64,000 nt of DNA from a virus. Every line of letters starts with the position of its first letter. Position 1 is the stretch's first letter. Of the stretch, positions 17,938 to 63,999 are shown one piece after another. Location of the stretch: positions 33,433 through 97,432 of IMG/VR virus record IMGVR_UViG_3300017605_000706; one strand, 5' to 3'. The translations under genes and the position numbers were made by a program. The notes under the pieces are model-generated. The model was not told the DNA's origin and searched no databases. It saw only the letters and a program-made list of their open reading frames with translations.

Positions 17938-18666
17938 TCATCGTGGAATCTCCCTTACGCGTGACGCCCAACTGTCTGTGACCGCGTCAATCGCAGCGCG
18001 GCCTTCTGGAAGCTCCGTATAGTACGGATCACTAAGATAGTGCGGGATCTCGGGCGTGGCGTGGTTGCCGCCGTGGATCAAGTACACGTATCCGGTGTTG
18101 ACAATTTTGTAGGGCGCGCCTCCGGCGAGGGCGGGTACGATCATGGCTGTATCTGCGCCTGTCTGCGACGGGACCCCAGTATGGGTAGGGTATGGATTCT
18201 TCAGCGCGAAATCTCGTCGCATGACAAGCGACGCACCGATCATCCACGGCGTTTCTCCCCCGTAGACGTACTTCCACGCCTTGTCGGTTCGGATCTCGTA
18301 GATGTGCATCTCGGTGGATCCGATCATCTGAAGATACGGGTTGTCGCGGATTGCTCGATCAACCACGCTGAGCCGATCGGGCGCTAGCCAGTCGTCATCG
18401 TCCCAGACCGCGATCCATTCCCCTAGACATGCTTCTGTTGCTGCGTTACGTCGGGCGCCGTCGGTTTCGATCGGCGGGATACCTACGACGCGAATGTTAA
18501 ACGCTTGAGGTACGACTTTGAGAACGGCGTCTATATGGCTGATTGGACATACGATCACAAGCTCGCGTCCACAGGCGGCGTACGTTTGCTCCTGAAACCT
18601 CTTAACGGCTTCGGGCAGGATCCAAGTTCTAGACTTCGTGGTAAGAGTCACGCATGAGAAGCGCAT
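17938..18666 (-). CDS. GT2 glycosyltransferase
   Basis: ATG 18666; F.EQTY...ELVIV...GARRNA...WIAVWDDDDW. Confidence 0.85.
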   Translation of the reverse strand: MRFSCVTLTTKSRTWILPEAVKRFQEQTYAACGRELVIVCPISHIDAVLKVVPQAFNIRVVGIPPIETDGARRNAATEACLGEWIAVWDDDDWLAPDRLSVVDRAIRDNPYLQMIGSTEMHIYEIRTDKAWKYVYGGETPWMIGASLVMRRDFALKNPYPTHTGVPSQTGADTAMIVPALAGGAPYKIVNTGYVYLIHGGNHATPEIPHYLSDPYYTELPEGRAAIDAVTDSWASRVREIPR

Positions 18667-18701
18667 GTTCTGTTCAGACCTGTGTGATAGACCGTACTTC
18701 A

Positions 18702-19286
18702 ATGAACGTCTGGTTTGCAACTGCCTCTCGAGATAGAGAGGCGACTTCTGAATGCCTGGCAACGTGGCGTGAGCATGGGTACAAAACGGCAGCGCTGTTC
18801 GAGTACGGCATGGAGACTGTGACGGAGGCTGACCTGATCTTCTTCACAGGATCGTGGGACAGTAACTATGCGGTACTGAATCTCATGGCGCGTCTTTTGG
18901 CCGAGAATCACGAGGCGGACGTCGTCATCGCAGGCCAGCCGACATCGCGCCCGGATCCGACAGTGGACCCTGTCGTAGTAGCTGCTAACGCCTTCAACCG
19001 CTTTTCTGACGGGTGCTTTGTAGTCCGGGCCGCCTCGCCCGGGCCATTGTGGCTCGGCCGCGGCTGGATAGAACAAGCGTACAAGGGTACAGGGCCGTTC
19101 TGGATCGGCTACAAGAACGCTTGGGCTGAGACTGAGACTACAATGATCGCCGCGAGGCTCGATCGTATGATCGACCGGCCTGATATCCAACAAACGCACC
19201 TGTTCGCGACAAGCGAAGAAGACAGCGCGTTGTTTCACGAACGCTTAGCGCAATCTTTCCCGGAGTCGAGCCTATGGGAACCGTGA
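18702..19286 (+). CDS. hypothetical protein, possibly degenerate GT-A fold
   Basis: ATG 18702; weak GT-like pattern, lacks a clear DxD. Confidence 0.5.
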   Translation: MNVWFATASRDREATSECLATWREHGYKTAALFEYGMETVTEADLIFFTGSWDSNYAVLNLMARLLAENHEADVVIAGQPTSRPDPTVDPVVVAANAFNRFSDGCFVVRAASPGPLWLGRGWIEQAYKGTGPFWIGYKNAWAETETTMIAARLDRMIDRPDIQQTHLFATSEEDSALFHERLAQSFPESSLWEP

Positions 19287-19899: not shown

Positions 19900-20087
19900 G
19901 CCTATTCAAGCCCGATTGGGAACGCACACTCAAGATTCTGTACGCTGTGGGTGAGACGCTCGCTACGGGGAGCGTTCCCACGAAGGGCCTTTCTGATGCC
20001 GACCAACGTACAGTCAAGCTGACCGCAGCTGCGTTCGAGCACGCGATTCGTGGTGTGGTTAGCGTCGTGAAGCGTTACCGCGAGTAG
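19896..20087 (+). CDS. hypothetical protein
   Basis: ATGA overlap with upstream gene. Confidence 0.5.
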   Translation: MSLFKPDWERTLKILYAVGETLATGSVPTKGLSDADQRTVKLTAAAFEHAIRGVVSVVKRYRE

Positions 20088-20572
20088 CTAGGCTCGAGGA
20101 TCGTTCCTGTGGGGAACGTCAGCGTCGCAGTAGCCCCCGCTGTGACGTATTGGTCAAACGGCGCCCAGTCCAGCGCGTTGTAACCCATGATTACGTGGGA
20201 TGCGATTTTGACCTCGTGTTCGAACGTGAACGCGCGCGTTGCTGCGTCTCGAGCGACGTGGTGATGAATTCTGTGAATCTCCCACGGCAGTCCATCGATA
20301 GCTACGCAGCTCTCGAGGAGCCGTTCGCCCCGGAAGGTTCTGTGTTCGAATTCGAACCAGTAGGCGTTGATGCGCTGCCGTACGTGTTCGGCGATCTTCT
20401 CGGGATCAGGCTTGCCCTTGGTCGATAGAATCTGGCGTCGGTGCAGGCTGAGGGGATCGCTCTTTCCGTGAAGTTCCCGCGTGAATAGCTCGACGACGCC
20501 GCGCGCTTCGAGCCTCACCTCGAAGCCTCGATACCATACGATCTGGCGCCCGACGGTGATTATGTCAGCCAT
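20075..20572 (-). CDS. PWEIH-motif family member 1 (with W.PF..FPTG extension)
   Basis: WYRG; IDGLPWEIHRIHHHVARDAATRAF; LDWAPF...LTFPTG. Confidence 0.75.
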   Translation of the reverse strand: MADIITVGRQIVWYRGFEVRLEARGVVELFTRELHGKSDPLSLHRRQILSTKGKPDPEKIAEHVRQRINAYWFEFEHRTFRGERLLESCVAIDGLPWEIHRIHHHVARDAATRAFTFEHEVKIASHVIMGYNALDWAPFDQYVTAGATATLTFPTGTILEPSYSR

Positions 20573-21066
20573 GCTTTGATCTCATACTTCAAGTGCTCGC
20601 CTGTCGGAAATCGTAAGATAGCCTGCTTGGGGAACTGGACATAGCCTAGCGTCGTCCTTGGCAGCTTCTTCTTCGCTGAACCAGAACACTCGGTGACTGA
20701 TCTGAATGGCGGCCAATCGAGTACGCCGCTGTCTAGATCTACGGTGATCTCGACGCTCTTTAGATAGCTGCAAAGAGCAGACGCGTAAGCTATCTCGTCT
20801 TCGATCGCGTGGATCTCCCAAGGCACGTAGTCGATCGCGTGATAGTACTCAAGGTCTCTGAACCTGACTACTCGGTTTGACTCGAAAAAATACCTTCCGG
20901 GCGGCTTCTTCCGTGGCCGAACCAAGACGCGTGCGTCCCGCGTTTCTACACCGCGTATCCAGCTGAGGCCTACAGGATCTTGCGAAGCGCTTCGCTGCCA
21001 GCGGTACATGCCAGGGCCGCCAACGCTAAGATATCTGCCCCCAGTCCGTGAAAGATGCACCGTCAT
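20560..21066 (-). CDS. PWEIH-motif family member 2 (with extension)
   Basis: WIRG; IDYVPWEIHAIEDEIAYASALCSY; LDWPPF...LRFPTG. Confidence 0.75.
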   Translation of the reverse strand: MTVHLSRTGGRYLSVGGPGMYRWQRSASQDPVGLSWIRGVETRDARVLVRPRKKPPGRYFFESNRVVRFRDLEYYHAIDYVPWEIHAIEDEIAYASALCSYLKSVEITVDLDSGVLDWPPFRSVTECSGSAKKKLPRTTLGYVQFPKQAILRFPTGEHLKYEIKAWLT

Positions 21067-21512
21067 AGCTTGGCTTTGGGACGCGTGATCTCACCTGTAG
21101 GGAATACTAGCTTCACTGAAGCGCCGTTGAACGGAGGCCAATGTAGCGTCTCGTGGAGAGTCACCTCGGCGCTCTGTAGATAGGCCTTTGTCGCAGCAAG
21201 GCGCGCCGTGGTGTTCGTGATCCGATGGATCTCCCACGGAATGTAGTCTACGGCTGTCATCGCGCTCATCGCGCCGTCTCGTAGAAGATGCGTTGTCTTG
21301 CCTCGGATCTGAAGCTCGATATCGCCTTTGAGGCGGGCCTTGTGCAAGGCGATGAAACACAAGTTGCCGTGCGATCGGACGTGGAACCGCAGCTCGCGTT
21401 GGTCTGCCAGGCTGTAATGGAGAACGCGAATCTCAAATCCGCGATGCCATGCTAGGTCTCGCTTCTCGTTCCAGTAGATGTCAGACGACGTCGACGGGGT
21501 CGTTGTCGGCAT
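21063..21512 (-). CDS. PWEIH-motif family member 3 (with extension; start uncertain)
   Basis: WHRG; VDYIPWEIHRITNTTARLAATKAY; LHWPPF...LVFPTG. Confidence 0.75.
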   Translation of the reverse strand: MPTTTPSTSSDIYWNEKRDLAWHRGFEIRVLHYSLADQRELRFHVRSHGNLCFIALHKARLKGDIELQIRGKTTHLLRDGAMSAMTAVDYIPWEIHRITNTTARLAATKAYLQSAEVTLHETLHWPPFNGASVKLVFPTGEITRPKAKL

Positions 21513-22248
21513 GGAGTACAACGTCTTCATTGAACCACGAAACCGCGACATCGATCGGCGTCAGCTCAAGGGACGCCCGAATCGTCGATGGGTCGTGCGC
21601 GTCCTTGATGCCTTTCTTGATGTCCTTGACAGCCGCTTTCACGCAGTCGACGGCGTTGCGTAGGATGGTTCCCGGGACGCCGAGCGCTAGCTTGTCGAGG
21701 TTGCGTGACCGGATCTGGATCGTCTTGACCAGATTCAGATCGAGGGCGAGAAGCGCATCCTTGTAGTCAGCCAGGTGACTCGTGATCGTGTCAGCGATAG
21801 CCTTCGCAGCTGCAGGACCGTCCTGGCCGTCTCCGCTCGAGAGGAGCGCAGTCATCATGGCAATACGAATCCTGTGACGAGAGCCGACTGTACGCGCCTC
21901 TTCGTTCAGAGCATCGGCCTCTTCCTTGAGAGGGCCGATCTCGGCACGGAGCTTAGCCAGCTGCTCATCAGTCGCGACGAAGCCGAAGCTGACGAGAGTG
22001 GCGTGGCTGCGGAACATGTAGTCGATCTTGTTGCGCAGCTTAGCCATCTTCGCAACCACAGGCTCGTGGTCAACCTTCTTGACGACGATCGACTCAGTCC
22101 GCGTTCCAGCCGTGCCTTCAGCGGTTGTGCTAATTGGCTGCCGCTCGTACTGAACGCCGCCACCGGACTGCGTCGCGTTCAAAAGGATCCACTTTACAGC
22201 GAGGGTGACGGTCTTGTTATCTGCGCTCGTGATACTAATCGTGCTCAT
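21481..22248 (-). CDS. coiled-coil protein in the AAA+/VWA operon
   Basis: 255 aa, helical, directly downstream of the VWA gene. Confidence 0.7.
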   Translation of the reverse strand: MSTISITSADNKTVTLAVKWILLNATQSGGGVQYERQPISTTAEGTAGTRTESIVVKKVDHEPVVAKMAKLRNKIDYMFRSHATLVSFGFVATDEQLAKLRAEIGPLKEEADALNEEARTVGSRHRIRIAMMTALLSSGDGQDGPAAAKAIADTITSHLADYKDALLALDLNLVKTIQIRSRNLDKLALGVPGTILRNAVDCVKAAVKDIKKGIKDAHDPSTIRASLELTPIDVAVSWFNEDVVLHADNDPVDVV

Positions 22249-22260
22249 GGTTCGCTTCTT

Positions 22261-22286
22261 TGACAGGTTTCAGGGTAATAAATTCA
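22261..22286 (-). promoter_or_regulatory. TGAAT-N17-GTCA promoter-like motif
   Basis: 12 nt upstream of ATG 22248. Confidence 0.55.
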
Positions 22287-22299
22287 CAAGTTCATGGGA

Positions 22300-23595
22300 T
22301 CAGATCTCAGGATCCACGAGAACCTTCTTGAAATTCTCTGGCGCGCTGTCCAGGCTGCCGTAGCCAACGAGCGCAGCAACCGCCATCGCGACGTTTTTGG
22401 GCCGCGCGGGCCACTGCCCAAAGCAACCGCCATCGGTTAGGTGCACCAGCGCATCAAACTTGTCGCGTAGCTCGCTCACGGCTTGGTAGGCCGGATCGAA
22501 GATCGTTCCTCCGCGACCCTTCATGCACTTCCAAACGGCGGGCAGCGACGACGATGGCTGCAGCCAGCCCTTCCACTGCACCTCCGCGTCGTGGACTACC
22601 AAGTACAGTCGAATAGCGGGATTGGACGACGCGGCGACGACTTCGCTGACACAGCGGGCAACGGCTTTGTCGGACATGGAGCCAGACGTATCGACGATGA
22701 TGCAGATATTCTTGCGCGCTGAGATGTAGCCTGGCATCAGAAAGCTAGAGCCGTAGTACCGCCGGTTACGGCGCTGCCACGACTGGTCATCGCGCCCTGG
22801 CCACGCGAGTACCTGGCTAATCGTGTGCCGGACGAGGCGCGCCCAAGAGATTCTCGCCTTGGGCGGTTCGATGATGCGCGCCAGCGCCTGACCTGCCTGT
22901 GTCCCTGCGCCGAGGGACCTCGCCATCTCGCCCATGGCTCGCCAGATAAGCTCGGGGTTCCGCTTGGCGGTATCCGGATCGAGATCCTCGCCTTCACCTT
23001 CGTTGTTGGGCAGATCCGTGTCCACGCCGCAGCCCTGGCCCGCCTGCGGGCGCTTGTTGCCAACGGATTTGCCCTTACCAGAGCCGGACCCTCCTGCGCT
23101 TACCACTGCAACGGGCGTCTCCGGCTCGACGTCGTATAGGCGCTCTGCCTCCCACAACTTCTGCTCGTCCGTGAGAGGAAATAGCGGCTTGACTTTCTCG
23201 GGAATCGCCAGAACGTCAGCGTGCCGATCCTGCGAGATCTCCAGTAGAACTTGATTGATGGCGCGGTCTGCGGCTCTGTTCCAACGCGTAGATTCACGGT
23301 GCTGCTGGCGCTCCAGCGTTGACGTGATCAGGTGCAGCGACTCATGCGCCATCACGAACGCCAGCTCAGGCATCGTGAGCATCTGGACAAACTTCGGGTT
23401 GACGAAACAGACGCCGTACCGATTGATCGCGGCGGTTTCGACTTTCTCCGTGATTCGAATGCGGAGCGCGCTTGCGATGATGGCGAACATGGGAAGCTGG
23501 TAGCCTAGAACCACCAGCGCTTGACGGACCTGCGCGATCTCAAGAGACTTCGCGTTGGGCCACAGCTTACGCAGCTTTTCTTCGTTCAGCGCCAT
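22300..23595 (-). CDS. metallopeptidase-VWA protein (DUF2201-like), MoxR partner
   Basis: VETAA, AHESLH (HExxH), WNRAAD.AIN; VWA MIDAS DTSGS, GRGGT.F, LTDG. Confidence 0.88.
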   Translation of the reverse strand: MALNEEKLRKLWPNAKSLEIAQVRQALVVLGYQLPMFAIIASALRIRITEKVETAAINRYGVCFVNPKFVQMLTMPELAFVMAHESLHLITSTLERQQHRESTRWNRAADRAINQVLLEISQDRHADVLAIPEKVKPLFPLTDEQKLWEAERLYDVEPETPVAVVSAGGSGSGKGKSVGNKRPQAGQGCGVDTDLPNNEGEGEDLDPDTAKRNPELIWRAMGEMARSLGAGTQAGQALARIIEPPKARISWARLVRHTISQVLAWPGRDDQSWQRRNRRYYGSSFLMPGYISARKNICIIVDTSGSMSDKAVARCVSEVVAASSNPAIRLYLVVHDAEVQWKGWLQPSSSLPAVWKCMKGRGGTIFDPAYQAVSELRDKFDALVHLTDGGCFGQWPARPKNVAMAVAALVGYGSLDSAPENFKKVLVDPEI

Positions 23596-23627
23596 GTTCG
23601 TTTAGACTTTCTGTGAGGGCAGTCAGA

Positions 23628-24746
23628 TCAGAAGATAGCGCGATTGTACGCGACGAGTCGACCCAGAGCAGCTGCGCCGGCAGGAGCCCACTTCGGGTTC
23701 TTGGTCACCTGCTTGGGAACAGACTGAACGATCATAGCAGCAGTAGCGCGCTTGATCTCCGCGGACGGCAAGCGATCGATCCAGACGAAGGCTGCCCAGT
23801 AATCCTTCTCAGCGGCGCGGCGCGCGACCGTGATCGCCGCCAGCTCGTACTTGCGCTCCGAGGGCACCGGCGTCTTCTCGGGATCGTTGGCGATCTGGTC
23901 GGGCGTGGGCAGGTGCTTGCGCAGCTCGCGTTGGGCCAAGAACTTGAGCGCGGGGCCGGTACCGACAACGCCTGCCAGGATCGCAGCGCCTACCATGTCG
24001 CCCTGGCCCGTGGCGTAGTCGCGCGCGAGCGCCGAGTACGCGCGAAGCCCAAGCTCCCACGCGCGGGGGCTTCCCCACGGCTGCCCGTCGGCGATCGACG
24101 ACTCGGGCGGCGCGAACTCGATCAGATCTCCCAGGTGCTTGGCGGCAAGCGAGAAGTCCTCGGCTTCGTTCTTGTACGCAGTCGTAGCGTCGTCGTCTGC
24201 GAGAAGATTGGATAGGTTGGGCACGACAGGCGTGCCTGCGAAGAAGTTGGCGATCTCATCGAGCTGAGGCTGGACCTTGACCTGGACCATGCGGTTGACC
24301 ATCGCTGCAGAGAGCGTGATGCCGCCCGGGGCCTGATCCGGGTGGTTGCCTGCCATGAGGATGCGCGACTTCGGGTGCAGCTGGCGACCGCCTGCGTTAC
24401 GCTCGAGAGCGAGGCGCAGCATGGGCGCTTCGACAGAGCGCGGGATCGCCGTGATCTCGTCGAGGAACAGGACTACAGGCTCGTCACACGCCTGCTCGAT
24501 CTCGGGAAAGAGCGCGCGCTGGACGTGGCCCTCGTCGACGAATGGCAGGCCCGCGAAATCGGTCGCCTCCATGTTGGACGCGATCAGCGTGACGCATGGC
24601 ATGTTGAGTTGCTTGCTGACAGCGCGGGCGATCGCCGTCTTTCCGACGCCTGGCGAGCCGAGCATGAGGCAGGCGACATTCGCGCGAGCGCACGCGGCGG
24701 CGATCTCAGCGGTCTGAGCGAGATTCGAATCGGGGAGCTTGGCCAT
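23628..24746 (-). CDS. MoxR-type AAA+ ATPase
   Basis: Walker A GSPGVGKT, DFAGLP, Walker B LFLDEI, AGN, NR Arg finger, SPRAWE. Confidence 0.9.
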   Translation of the reverse strand: MAKLPDSNLAQTAEIAAACARANVACLMLGSPGVGKTAIARAVSKQLNMPCVTLIASNMEATDFAGLPFVDEGHVQRALFPEIEQACDEPVVLFLDEITAIPRSVEAPMLRLALERNAGGRQLHPKSRILMAGNHPDQAPGGITLSAAMVNRMVQVKVQPQLDEIANFFAGTPVVPNLSNLLADDDATTAYKNEAEDFSLAAKHLGDLIEFAPPESSIADGQPWGSPRAWELGLRAYSALARDYATGQGDMVGAAILAGVVGTGPALKFLAQRELRKHLPTPDQIANDPEKTPVPSERKYELAAITVARRAAEKDYWAAFVWIDRLPSAEIKRATAAMIVQSVPKQVTKNPKWAPAGAAALGRLVAYNRAIF

Positions 24747-24784
24747 GGGATTTACTCAAATTCCTTTCAGGGTTACAGAAGCAC

Positions 24785-24810
24785 AGACGTGTGAGTCGAT
24801 CAGGTATTCA
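24785..24810 (-). promoter_or_regulatory. TGAAT-N17-GTCT promoter-like motif
   Basis: Upstream of MoxR ATPase. Confidence 0.6.
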
Positions 24811-26419: not shown

Positions 26420-26445
26420 TGAATCCTGAGCTGGGGCTGGCGTCT
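26420..26445 (+). promoter_or_regulatory. TGAAT-N17-GTCT promoter-like motif
   Basis: 8 nt before ATG 26454. Confidence 0.65.
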
Positions 26446-62473: not shown

Positions 62474-62845
62474 CTAGTAGACCTCATAGAGGTCGCCGTG
62501 AAACCACTGGTTTAGCCGTTGAACTAGCCTATCCGTAGGCAACGCGCCCATCTGGCTCGTCCAGCCACGATAAGCGGCTTCACGCGGTATCTTATCGGAA
62601 ATACAATGTATTTCCCATGGGACGTCATCCCATGACGCTACGTCTGAGGTTCGCCCAATAAGCGCTACGACGCCGTCTACGAAATTGTAGACGGCGTCGT
62701 AACTGTGCACGTGTGATACGGTTACGGTCGGCGTGTTTTGCCGACCGTAGACGCGCAGATCGTTACCGTCCTGAACGGCTGCAAGTCCGCGATATACTAA
62801 AATAACACGGCCAGAGTAGTCTCCGCACCGAAAGCGCCAGATCAC
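62474..62845 (-). CDS. PWEIH-motif family member 23
   Basis: GTG 62845 (MIWRF); VYRG; WDDVPWEIHCISDKIPREAAY. Confidence 0.72.
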   Translation of the reverse strand: MIWRFRCGDYSGRVILVYRGLAAVQDGNDLRVYGRQNTPTVTVSHVHSYDAVYNFVDGVVALIGRTSDVASWDDVPWEIHCISDKIPREAAYRGWTSQMGALPTDRLVQRLNQWFHGDLYEVY

Positions 62846-62994
62846 GGCTTGGCCTTCTTGGGCCGCTTGAACTTGAGCAAGCGATCGCCTCTCTGTTTGT
62901 TCCAGAGGGCGATCGAGTGGAATCGAGTCGTAGCTTTGATCTCGCCTGAGGGGCTGAACACTACCCAAATGATTTCTGGGATGGGCTGATTCAC
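62842..62994 (-). CDS. 50-aa basic protein (below ORF-track cutoff)
   Basis: MNQPIPEIIWVV...KRPKKAKP; GTGA overlap with member 23. Confidence 0.45.
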   Translation of the reverse strand: MNQPIPEIIWVVFSPSGEIKATTRFHSIALWNKQRGDRLLKFKRPKKAKP

Positions 62995-63013
62995 AGCCGA
63001 GCACTCTAGGCGA

Positions 63014-63370: not shown

Positions 63371-63826
63371 CTACACGATCTCCTGAACAAGTACAGGACT
63401 GATCATAGCCAGCCTGAGCGCAAAGATCAGCCGCCTTTTCAGGCTGTCACTCGATACGGCGCCGTTCTCACCTGTGTAAGCGTGATAGGCCGCTTCTCTA
63501 GCGACGTCGTCGTCTATCGTATGAATTTCCCACGGGACGTCATCGAAAGGTTGATAGCGCCGGATCGATGGGTACTCCGTGAGGTCAAAGCGAGGCCATA
63601 TCGTATCCAGATGAGGTGGCTTGCCTGGACGGCCTACGTAATGGGCTCCCCAACTCAGTTGAAAACAGTCCGACTGGAAAGCCTGGAAAGCGCCGTAGGC
63701 GCGCTGCAGCGCGTACAGGCGCCATGAAGGGAGCCCGTGATCTTCGCGCTCGTGGTATGTTCTCAGGCAGAGTCCGCGACAGACGACGAAATAGCTGCTC
63801 AAGTCTGACGCGAAGATCCAGATCAC
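63371..63826 (-). CDS. PWEIH-motif family member 24
   Basis: GTG 63826 (MIWIF); CRG; FDDVPWEIHTIDDDVAREAAY. Confidence 0.72.
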   Translation of the reverse strand: MIWIFASDLSSYFVVCRGLCLRTYHEREDHGLPSWRLYALQRAYGAFQAFQSDCFQLSWGAHYVGRPGKPPHLDTIWPRFDLTEYPSIRRYQPFDDVPWEIHTIDDDVAREAAYHAYTGENGAVSSDSLKRRLIFALRLAMISPVLVQEIV

Positions 63827-63999
63827 TCGTCGTACTCGAGTAGCGCCCAAACAGGGTCGTCGGTTACCCGGCTGTAGTACTTGAGGTAGCCGCTGCCCGT
63901 CATACGCCAATCGTGGATCCGATCTTCAAGAAACGCGTTGACGAGATGTTCAGGCGTAATCGGTAGCGCAGGAGGCGCGTTCTCGTCGCGTTCGCGAAA
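63823..63999 (-). CDS. 3' end of a gene starting outside the window
   Basis: Open frame ...WALLEYDE* ending in GTGA overlap with member 24. Confidence 0.5.
   Translation of the reverse strand, partial: FRERDENAPPALPITPEHLVNAFLEDRIHDWRMTGSGYLKYYSRVTDDPVWALLEYDE

Follow-up and report, generated by a model that had tools for sequence, protein, structure and literature searches.

A conserved viral AAA+ ATPase and VWA-peptidase module with three PWEIH-family genes attached in one lineage

A leftward run of six genes in IMG/VR virus record IMGVR_UViG_3300017605_000706 raises the question of whether an AAA+ ATPase and its VWA-metallopeptidase partner serve a large family of small paralogous proteins, or whether the two are simply neighbors on the genome. 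The run occupies 20075-24810 on the minus strand of the window analyzed here, a stretch of 64,000 nucleotides (nt) corresponding to bases 33433-97432 of the 97,432-bp record, for which the estimated completeness is 87%. In the direction of transcription it contains open reading frames (ORFs) for the ATPase, for a zincin-VWA protein, for a protein of 255 amino acids (aa) designated p255, and for three members of the family with the PWEIH motif, designated fam3, fam2 and fam1 (ORFs of 162, 168 and 165 aa). A preliminary description of this DNA had proposed that the first genes encode a remodelling or proteolysis engine for an adaptor library, with the family proteins docking conserved acidic motif residues on the metal-ion-dependent adhesion site (MIDAS) of the VWA domain. 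Its gene map was reproduced in full: all six minus-strand ORFs were found where it had placed them, in the same order and with the overlapping starts and stops of the family genes.

The best explanation, to which we give slightly better than even chances, is that the locus combines an old module with a lineage-specific trio of PWEIH proteins that would be accessory factors or clients of that module. As a phage module, the locus is of a familiar kind, to which the trio is attached in this lineage. A profile of 11 VWA homologues identified 80 viral loci. The ATPase gene is directly 5' of the VWA gene, on the same strand, in 66 of the 80, and a p255 homologue is directly 3' of the VWA gene in seven of the eight closest loci (29-34% identity). 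No PWEIH gene is present in any of the 80 VWA-bearing loci or in any of the eight closest whole records (G001-G008), four of which are at least 90% complete; as a positive control, the same profile search, which is separate from the motif HMM, gave 38 matches in the virus's own genome. Two of these records, G003 (124 kb) and G006 (127 kb), are true distant relatives with about 20 genes in common with this virus at 23-59% identity, including a fusion of uracil-DNA glycosylase (UDG) with PolA and SNF2 helicases. Both hold the three-gene module without the large paralogue family, indicating that the module is older than the family.

The module as a general engine for the adaptor library is accordingly improbable. 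The general link is doubted because the module predates the family and, in relatives as in hundreds of phages, is found without it, and because only 3 of the 36 members in the genome lie near the module. Eight other viral records hold the module and none of them a family member, which runs counter to the earlier claim that the module drives the whole family.

Layout and transcription of the locus

The features of the locus are as follows, with coordinates in the window.

24786-24810, minus strand: promoter-like motif TGAAT-N17-GTC, 39 nt 5' of the ATPase start codon
23628-24746, minus strand: predicted AAA+ ATPase, MoxR-like (AAA_5 type), 372 aa (Pfam, phrog_1297)
22300-23595, minus strand: predicted zincin-like metallopeptidase with VWA domain and complete MIDAS, 431 aa (DUF2201_N, DUF2201, phrog_1314)
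22262-22286, minus strand: second TGAAT-N17-GTC motif, 13 nt 5' of the p255 start codon
21481-22248, minus strand: p255, conserved third component (homologues 3' of the VWA gene; AlphaFold2 model)
21063-21551, minus strand: fam3, family member 3 with extension, 162 aa; start probably the ATG at 21512
20560-21066, minus strand: fam2, family member 2, whose extension is the longest (62 aa past the motif), 168 aa (hidden Markov model (HMM), extension)
20075-20572, minus strand: fam1, family member 1 with extension, 165 aa (orthologues P0055 and P0056; AlphaFold2 model)

The ATPase and VWA genes are separated by 32 nt. The gap between the VWA gene and p255 measures 51 nt and holds the second motif copy, a probable internal promoter. 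Because this copy precedes p255, p255 and the trio may form a transcription unit of their own, besides being reached by read-through from the ATPase operon. The fam ORFs overlap each other by 4 and 13 nt, and fam3 overlaps the end of p255 by 32-71 nt, according to the choice of start codon. The true start of fam3 is probably its third ATG, at 21512, since the orthologue P0067 begins at that position. It is p255, and not the VWA protein, that is the component of the module nearest to the trio, both physically and transcriptionally. In our proposal the locus would consist of two adjacent leftward units, each headed by TGAAT-N17-GTC, with the ATPase and the zincin-VWA protein in one and p255 and the three PWEIH paralogues in the other; the trio would share its expression with p255, translation of the two being probably coupled.

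The motif had been noticed earlier in front of the ATPase, the p255 gene and accessory genes, and the count bears this out: 14 copies occur in the window against 1.5 expected, and none of 100 shuffles reached 14. In most copies, taken as TGAAT-N16-18-GTC[TCA], the start codon lies 7-10 nt past GTC[TC]. Such short spacing suggests leaderless or near-leaderless transcripts and a promoter type other than sigma-70; in a scan of the locus, neither a sigma-70 consensus promoter nor an intrinsic terminator stands out. Beyond the two copies listed above there are about 12 sites, for example at 26420, 30427, 33031, 33763 and 36335. That the module and several family clusters have one promoter class was a point in favor of a family-wide engine. 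The motif also heads many other small genes, so the co-regulation is broad and provides no specific tie.

Components of the module

The ATPase scores above the Pfam cut-offs for PF00004 (AAA, 42.5 bits) and PF07728 (AAA_5, 30.4 bits) over residues 27-152 and matches phrog_1297 over its full length (2e-46). Its translation shows the core motifs, with Walker A as GSPGVGKT, Walker B as LFLDE and the sensor-1 Asn in ILMAGN. In BLASTP the ATPase of PA5oct is matched at 9e-20 and that of Erwinia S6 at 4e-24; both adjoin a VWA-peptidase. In NCBIfam and the PDB, the best it reaches is weak P-loop similarity to FtsH, PAN and p97, and the PADLOC defence models gave weak P-loop matches only. We refer to the protein as MoxR-like (AAA_5 type) and not as a proven MoxR member because the MoxR-specific profiles score below their cut-offs, bpMoxR (PF20030) reaching 14.2 bits against 27. 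The gene identities given in the preliminary description were thus confirmed for the ATPase and for the HExxH and VWA domains, with the name MoxR left short of its specific profiles.

The 431-aa partner matches DUF2201_N (PF13203, putative metallopeptidase) at 8e-26, with 91.7 bits against a gathering threshold of 23.2, and DUF2201 (PF09967, VWA-like) at 4.8e-9, with 36.8 bits against 26.4. It is also a match to phrog_1314 (5e-46). The zinc site HESLH is intact at residues 84-88, and the MIDAS set is complete, consisting of DTSGS at 302-306, T364 and D388. Wherever the 11 aligned homologues have sequence at these positions (P0010 stops short of the last Asp), all of them keep the MIDAS residues. 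In P0004, which is 65% identical to the 22300-23595 protein, Asp takes the place of the catalytic Glu of HExxH, and in P0008 Thr does, the MIDAS being invariant. A viral-contig scan with the single VWA protein yielded no confirmed match.

By analogy with MoxR-like/VWA pairs, the AAA+ hexamer would power the VWA protein as a cochaperone that holds a client through the MIDAS metal site, and the fused zincin domain may cut the client so held. The ATP-driven remodelling of a MIDAS-held client is the mechanism expected of MoxR-VWA pairs (PMC7159879). Client binding at the MIDAS, as put forward in the preliminary description, is a reasonable generic model for such pairs; the docking residues proposed for it vary, as discussed below. 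The third component, p255, could be a conserved accessory or client, and together the three constitute an old conserved viral module.

No match to p255 was found in Pfam, PHROGs, NCBIfam or PADLOC, and the ESM Atlas held no usable match for p255 or fam1. Seven p255 homologues at 25-30% identity are encoded directly 3' of a VWA gene, and four p255 homologues match phrog_11021, which is of unknown function. The AlphaFold2 model of p255, made with eight homologues, has a predicted local distance difference test (pLDDT) score of 84 and a predicted template modelling (pTM) score of 0.70, and consists of an N-terminal beta region and a C-terminal helical bundle. The former label of coiled-coil protein is thus loose. 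Against the PDB, the model matches generic four-helix bundles alone (Z about 8). Against predicted viral structures, the best match is S5YZA3 of Mycobacterium phage Dylan (Foldseek E 1.1e-11, TM 0.69), assigned as Dylan gp94 from its length of 275 aa. Alignment of the p255 profile with gp94 by hhalign gave a probability of 96.9% over 221 columns.

Dylan gp94, which is annotated as hypothetical, lies directly 3' of the AAA-ATPase gp95 (L115:8233-10825). By profile and predicted fold, p255 and gp94 are members of an unnamed phage protein family whose genes lie with those of AAA+ ATPases. The Dylan arrangement resembles the present one in having a p255 homologue directly 3' of an AAA ATPase gene. 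It differs in its ATPase, since gp95 (566 aa) belongs to the classical AAA clade and has only P-loop similarity to the one here, and in that no VWA protein was seen beside gp95.

In cultured phages, tblastn found the VWA-peptidase in 66 records and the ATPase in 564, with homologues in N4-like Schitoviridae, PA5oct-like jumbo phages, Bacillus phage G and others; the ATPase and VWA genes are in one cluster in Erwinia phage S6 and in PA5oct. A blastn search of the stretch itself against cultured phages gave no match. A MoxR/vWA pair with an N-terminal metallopeptidase has already been described in jumbo phages, for which a role in virion assembly and processing was proposed (Iyer et al. 2021, Viruses 13:63, PMC7824862). 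Applied to this locus, the module would mature or load virion components, and the trio would be assembly factors or packaged proteins. Besides the proposal for jumbo phages, such a role has been shown for the Acidianus two-tailed virus (ATV) tail, and the ATPase homologue of PA5oct is annotated as detected by electrospray ionization tandem mass spectrometry. The gene neighborhoods speak differently, however. The Erwinia phage S6 pair comes directly after RNA polymerase genes and a Mu Gam-like gene, the p255 homologue and ATPase of Dylan lie among genes for Pol III beta, Ku and ParB and not among structural genes, and the neighbors in the present virus are small accessory genes under the same promoter motif. 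We consider virion assembly a very unlikely account of the locus.

The PWEIH family and its extension-bearing trio

An HMM built from the motif finds 36 family members in the 97-kb genome, with 24 of them in the window, in agreement with the earlier estimate of about 24. Two elements are conserved: W-x-[YWFH]-R-G near the N-terminus, and D-G-[IV]-P-W-E-I-H-x-I-x-D-x-x-A-x-x-A-A-x-x-A-Y, which ends within 7 residues of the C-terminus in 31 of the 36. Both are present in fam1-3 (HMM E-values 1e-17 to 1e-18). Synonymous sites in the motif codons vary freely, Pro for example being encoded by CCG, CCA, CCC and CCT. The motif is therefore conserved at the protein level, and a DNA-level repeat or gene conversion was ruled out as the cause of its conservation.

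The extension L[DH]W[PA]PF...L.FPTG, which runs 33-62 aa past the motif, is restricted to fam1-3 among the 36 members, as had been reported for family members 3, 2 and 1, and an extension HMM had no other match in the genome, in 80 related loci or in metagenome fragments. Two members near the record's right end, at 62474-63004 and 63371-63910 on the minus strand, have a second tail type of 23-29 aa past the motif (..G[AE]..A[LV].[ST]D.L..RL..), which is unrelated to the trio extension. Since fam1-3 are mutually nearest or near-nearest paralogues, they represent a local tandem-duplicated subfamily. We propose that this fast-evolving, lineage-specific trio would have arisen by local tandem duplication, gained the beta-rich C-terminal extension, and then become fixed at the 3' end of the p255 unit. 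No match to the trio was found in Pfam, PHROGs, NCBIfam or PADLOC.

The AlphaFold2 model of fam1, made with 38 family sequences, has a pLDDT of 79 and a pTM of 0.71. Four beta strands are followed by a long helix, the motif region and a five-strand beta extension. The motif region comprises a short helix and a helix at 105-118 and is the most confident part of the model, with pLDDT about 90. In a fold search against the PDB, the best match of fam1 was type III secretion chaperone-like at Z 5.7, which is noise level.

These data bear directly on the docking proposed in the preliminary description, in which all 24-36 PWEIH proteins would place acidic motif residues on the MIDAS of an AAA+/VWA-zincin remodelling or proteolysis machine. 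The proposal draws strength from the combination of a variable body with a constant C-terminal motif under protein-level selection, and from the fact that MIDAS sites bind an acidic client residue in Rea1/midasin and in other MoxR-VWA pairs (PMC7159879); the trio is also apparently syntenic with the VWA gene in relatives. The residues named for docking are not, however, the constant ones. The strictly invariant motif positions over the 36 members are hydrophobic, one Ile and one Ala. The motif Glu is lost in five members and the His in six, and exactly three have another residue for the Asp of 'I.D', two of which belong to this operon: fam1, with His, and fam3, with Asn. The confidence with which AlphaFold2 folds the motif is more in keeping with a structural helix than with a free peptide for docking, and the second conserved motif, W-x-[YWF]RG in the N-proximal part, points to a folded domain. 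The residue pattern as a whole suits a structural amphipathic helix better than a free acidic peptide, and a conserved surface is still compatible with it. We assign only a small likelihood to this family-wide docking.

A related possibility is that the family proteins are pro-proteins, the zincin cleaving them either to strip the trio of its extension, which would expose the motif, or to release the conserved C-terminal module. Such an arrangement would recall the zincin peptidase and the small variable precursors with a conserved C-terminal peptide that are described beside bacterial vWA-MoxR ternary systems (PMC7159879). The HESLH site is intact, and the motif is internal in the trio in contrast to its terminal position in the 31 members mentioned above. 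On the other side, the motif and the N-proximal motif look like one folded domain, a cleavage-site motif was not identified, and the catalytic Glu is not kept in all homologues of the peptidase. Processing of this kind appears very unlikely indeed.

The family is distributed over the genome in a way that makes individual neighbors difficult to interpret. It accounts for 36 of about 154 genes (23%), and at least 16 different genes unrelated to it adjoin one of its members, with 4-nt overlaps of the same kind; adjacency therefore says little. Two SNF2-type helicase paralogues of 536 and 628 aa, outside the window (L120, G000:C1:12129-14167, and L119, 25402-28100), are each directly flanked by PWEIH genes, some of which have overlapping stops and starts. 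With both SNF2 genes flanked, the family abuts three different ATPase genes and not the AAA+ ATPase alone.

Beyond this record, an HMM search of 1.84 billion representative proteins gave 216 matches at E <= 1e-3, all of 80-180 aa with the exception of one repeat-protein artefact. This exception, P0065 (2389 aa, 21 matched stretches), was rejected as a false positive, being an unrelated tandem-repeat protein. As judged by these matches, the family is present elsewhere, rare and unnamed. A metagenome scan with the motif found four contigs, 1.0-1.6 kb in length and each with family genes in tandem, which are not long enough to reveal co-occurrence. These are JGI soil-type metagenome contigs (L089-L092) with two to four tandem family genes each, some orthologous to those at 6.2-7.5 kb of G000; tandem arrays are thus a general trait of the lineage. 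The exact pattern PWEIHxIxD had six chance matches in viral contigs, and a scan of genome contigs produced two chance matches in Campylobacter metagenome-assembled genomes and no host lead. Among sequencing runs, no RNA run was listed, and three DNA runs (rhizosphere, soil and freshwater) contained fragments of 150-450 bp that bridge nothing.

Relation of the trio to the module and to known systems

Evidence for a specific relation of the trio to the module comes from two sets of Logan contigs. Contigs of the identical size of 9960 bp carry the VWA homologue P0002 (89% identical), the fam1 orthologue P0055 (64%) and the fam3 orthologue P0067 (52%). Likewise, contigs of the identical size of 4394 bp carry the VWA homologue P0003 (68%) and the extension-bearing proteins P0058 and P0082 (about 40%). 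Judged by equal contig sizes alone, two diverged relatives appear to have kept the extension subfamily next to the VWA gene. If P0002, P0055 and P0067, and likewise P0003, P0058 and P0082, are co-located, the arrangement persisted as the small proteins changed much more rapidly than the VWA protein did.

The trio could instead have come to lie after p255 by chance in a compact genome crowded with the family, functionally unrelated to the module. The share of the family in the gene complement and its many unrelated neighbors, both SNF2 paralogues included, fit this view, as do the downstream neighbors of p255 in other viruses, which are unrelated genes. Against it, the trio is a distinct subfamily whose extension is absent from the rest of the genome and from the 80 loci, and it has apparently been kept beside the VWA gene while diverging to 40-64% identity. 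Pure passengers are unlikely in our estimate.

Our preferred explanation remains the two-unit one. In it the trio would plausibly serve the module of this lineage as accessory factors or clients, while the module is taken to be independent of the family and not an engine dedicated to the other 33 members, which are dispersed among many unrelated neighbors. Several points weigh against this explanation. The ATPase falls below the cut-off of the MoxR-proper model (PF07726, AAA_3; 17.0 bits against 27). In 2 of the 11 VWA homologues another residue stands for the catalytic Glu of HExxH, and proteolysis may for this reason be non-essential, with the peptidase activity dispensable in some lineages. 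Synteny in the relatives is deduced from equally sized contigs, and the trio may be mere passengers of the module. Finally, an experimental function of the phage ATPase-VWA-peptidase pair was not found in the literature searched.

Among known systems, the closest is the phage MoxR/vWA-metallopeptidase pair of N4-like Schitoviridae and PA5oct-like jumbo phages (PMC7824862). The same two families occur in the same order (phrog_1297 and phrog_1314), with the zincin HExxH and a VWA domain with MIDAS, and sequence homology was shown to the PA5oct and Erwinia S6 proteins. The present locus differs from that pair in having p255 as third gene, here and in an environmental-virus sub-clade, and in the multigene-family trio attached in this lineage only. 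The cellular MoxR-VWA pairs RavA-ViaA, CbbQ-CbbO, NorQ-NorD and Rea1/midasin, and p618/p892 of ATV, likewise place an AAA+ gene beside a MIDAS-bearing VWA partner; they differ from the present proteins, of which the ATPase matches MoxR proper below threshold and the VWA protein has a peptidase domain. The vWA-MoxR ternary conflict systems (Kaur et al. 2020, PMC7159879) also combine an ATPase, a vWA protein and a third protein, with rapidly diverging small proteins having a conserved C-terminal part nearby. However, the present locus is viral and not cellular, no component of VMAP, FtsH or beta-propeller type was recognized in it (p255 has no match among Pfam, NCBIfam and PADLOC models), and its small proteins look like a folded domain, unlike the peptide precursors of those systems.

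Among phage gene pairs that lack a tested function, the ATPase-VWA-peptidase pair ranks with the more widespread, being present in N4-like and jumbo phages and in many uncultured viruses. The present locus adds the conserved partner p255, which also accompanies a different AAA ATPase in a mycobacteriophage, and a lineage in which fast-evolving small proteins are fixed to the module. Should the trio interact with the module, it would provide an experimental handle on the module's clients; should it not, the case shows how little adjacency means when one family supplies a quarter of the genes.

A further version holds that the module was re-purposed, the PWEIH family, and the trio first, serving as interchangeable substrate-recognition subunits that direct host proteins to remodelling or cleavage. 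In the ankyrin-PRANC (F-box-like) families of poxviruses and giant viruses, which are rich in paralogues, a variable body is combined with a constant motif at the C-terminus. The PWEIH family would share with them the adaptor logic, with no sequence or fold relation, and its motif looks structural. The prospect of such re-purposing is slim; if true, it would represent a bacterial-virus counterpart of the F-box/PRANC adaptor libraries.

Two minor observations concern other genes of this virus. Inside a protein of 939 aa, a fusion of UDG, 3'-5' exonuclease and family A DNA polymerase, the Exo I DxE is closely followed by the stretch LPAEILCLEDHTARIVALRAYIQEH. This stretch, at G000:C1:20102-20203 (L118:895-996) and outside the window, is a weak match to the family motif (E 5e-4), perhaps by chance. 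At 17938-18762 on the minus strand, about 1.3 kb past where the locus ends, is a gene resembling family 2 glycosyltransferases (Pfam 5e-7), with homologues in G003 and G006.

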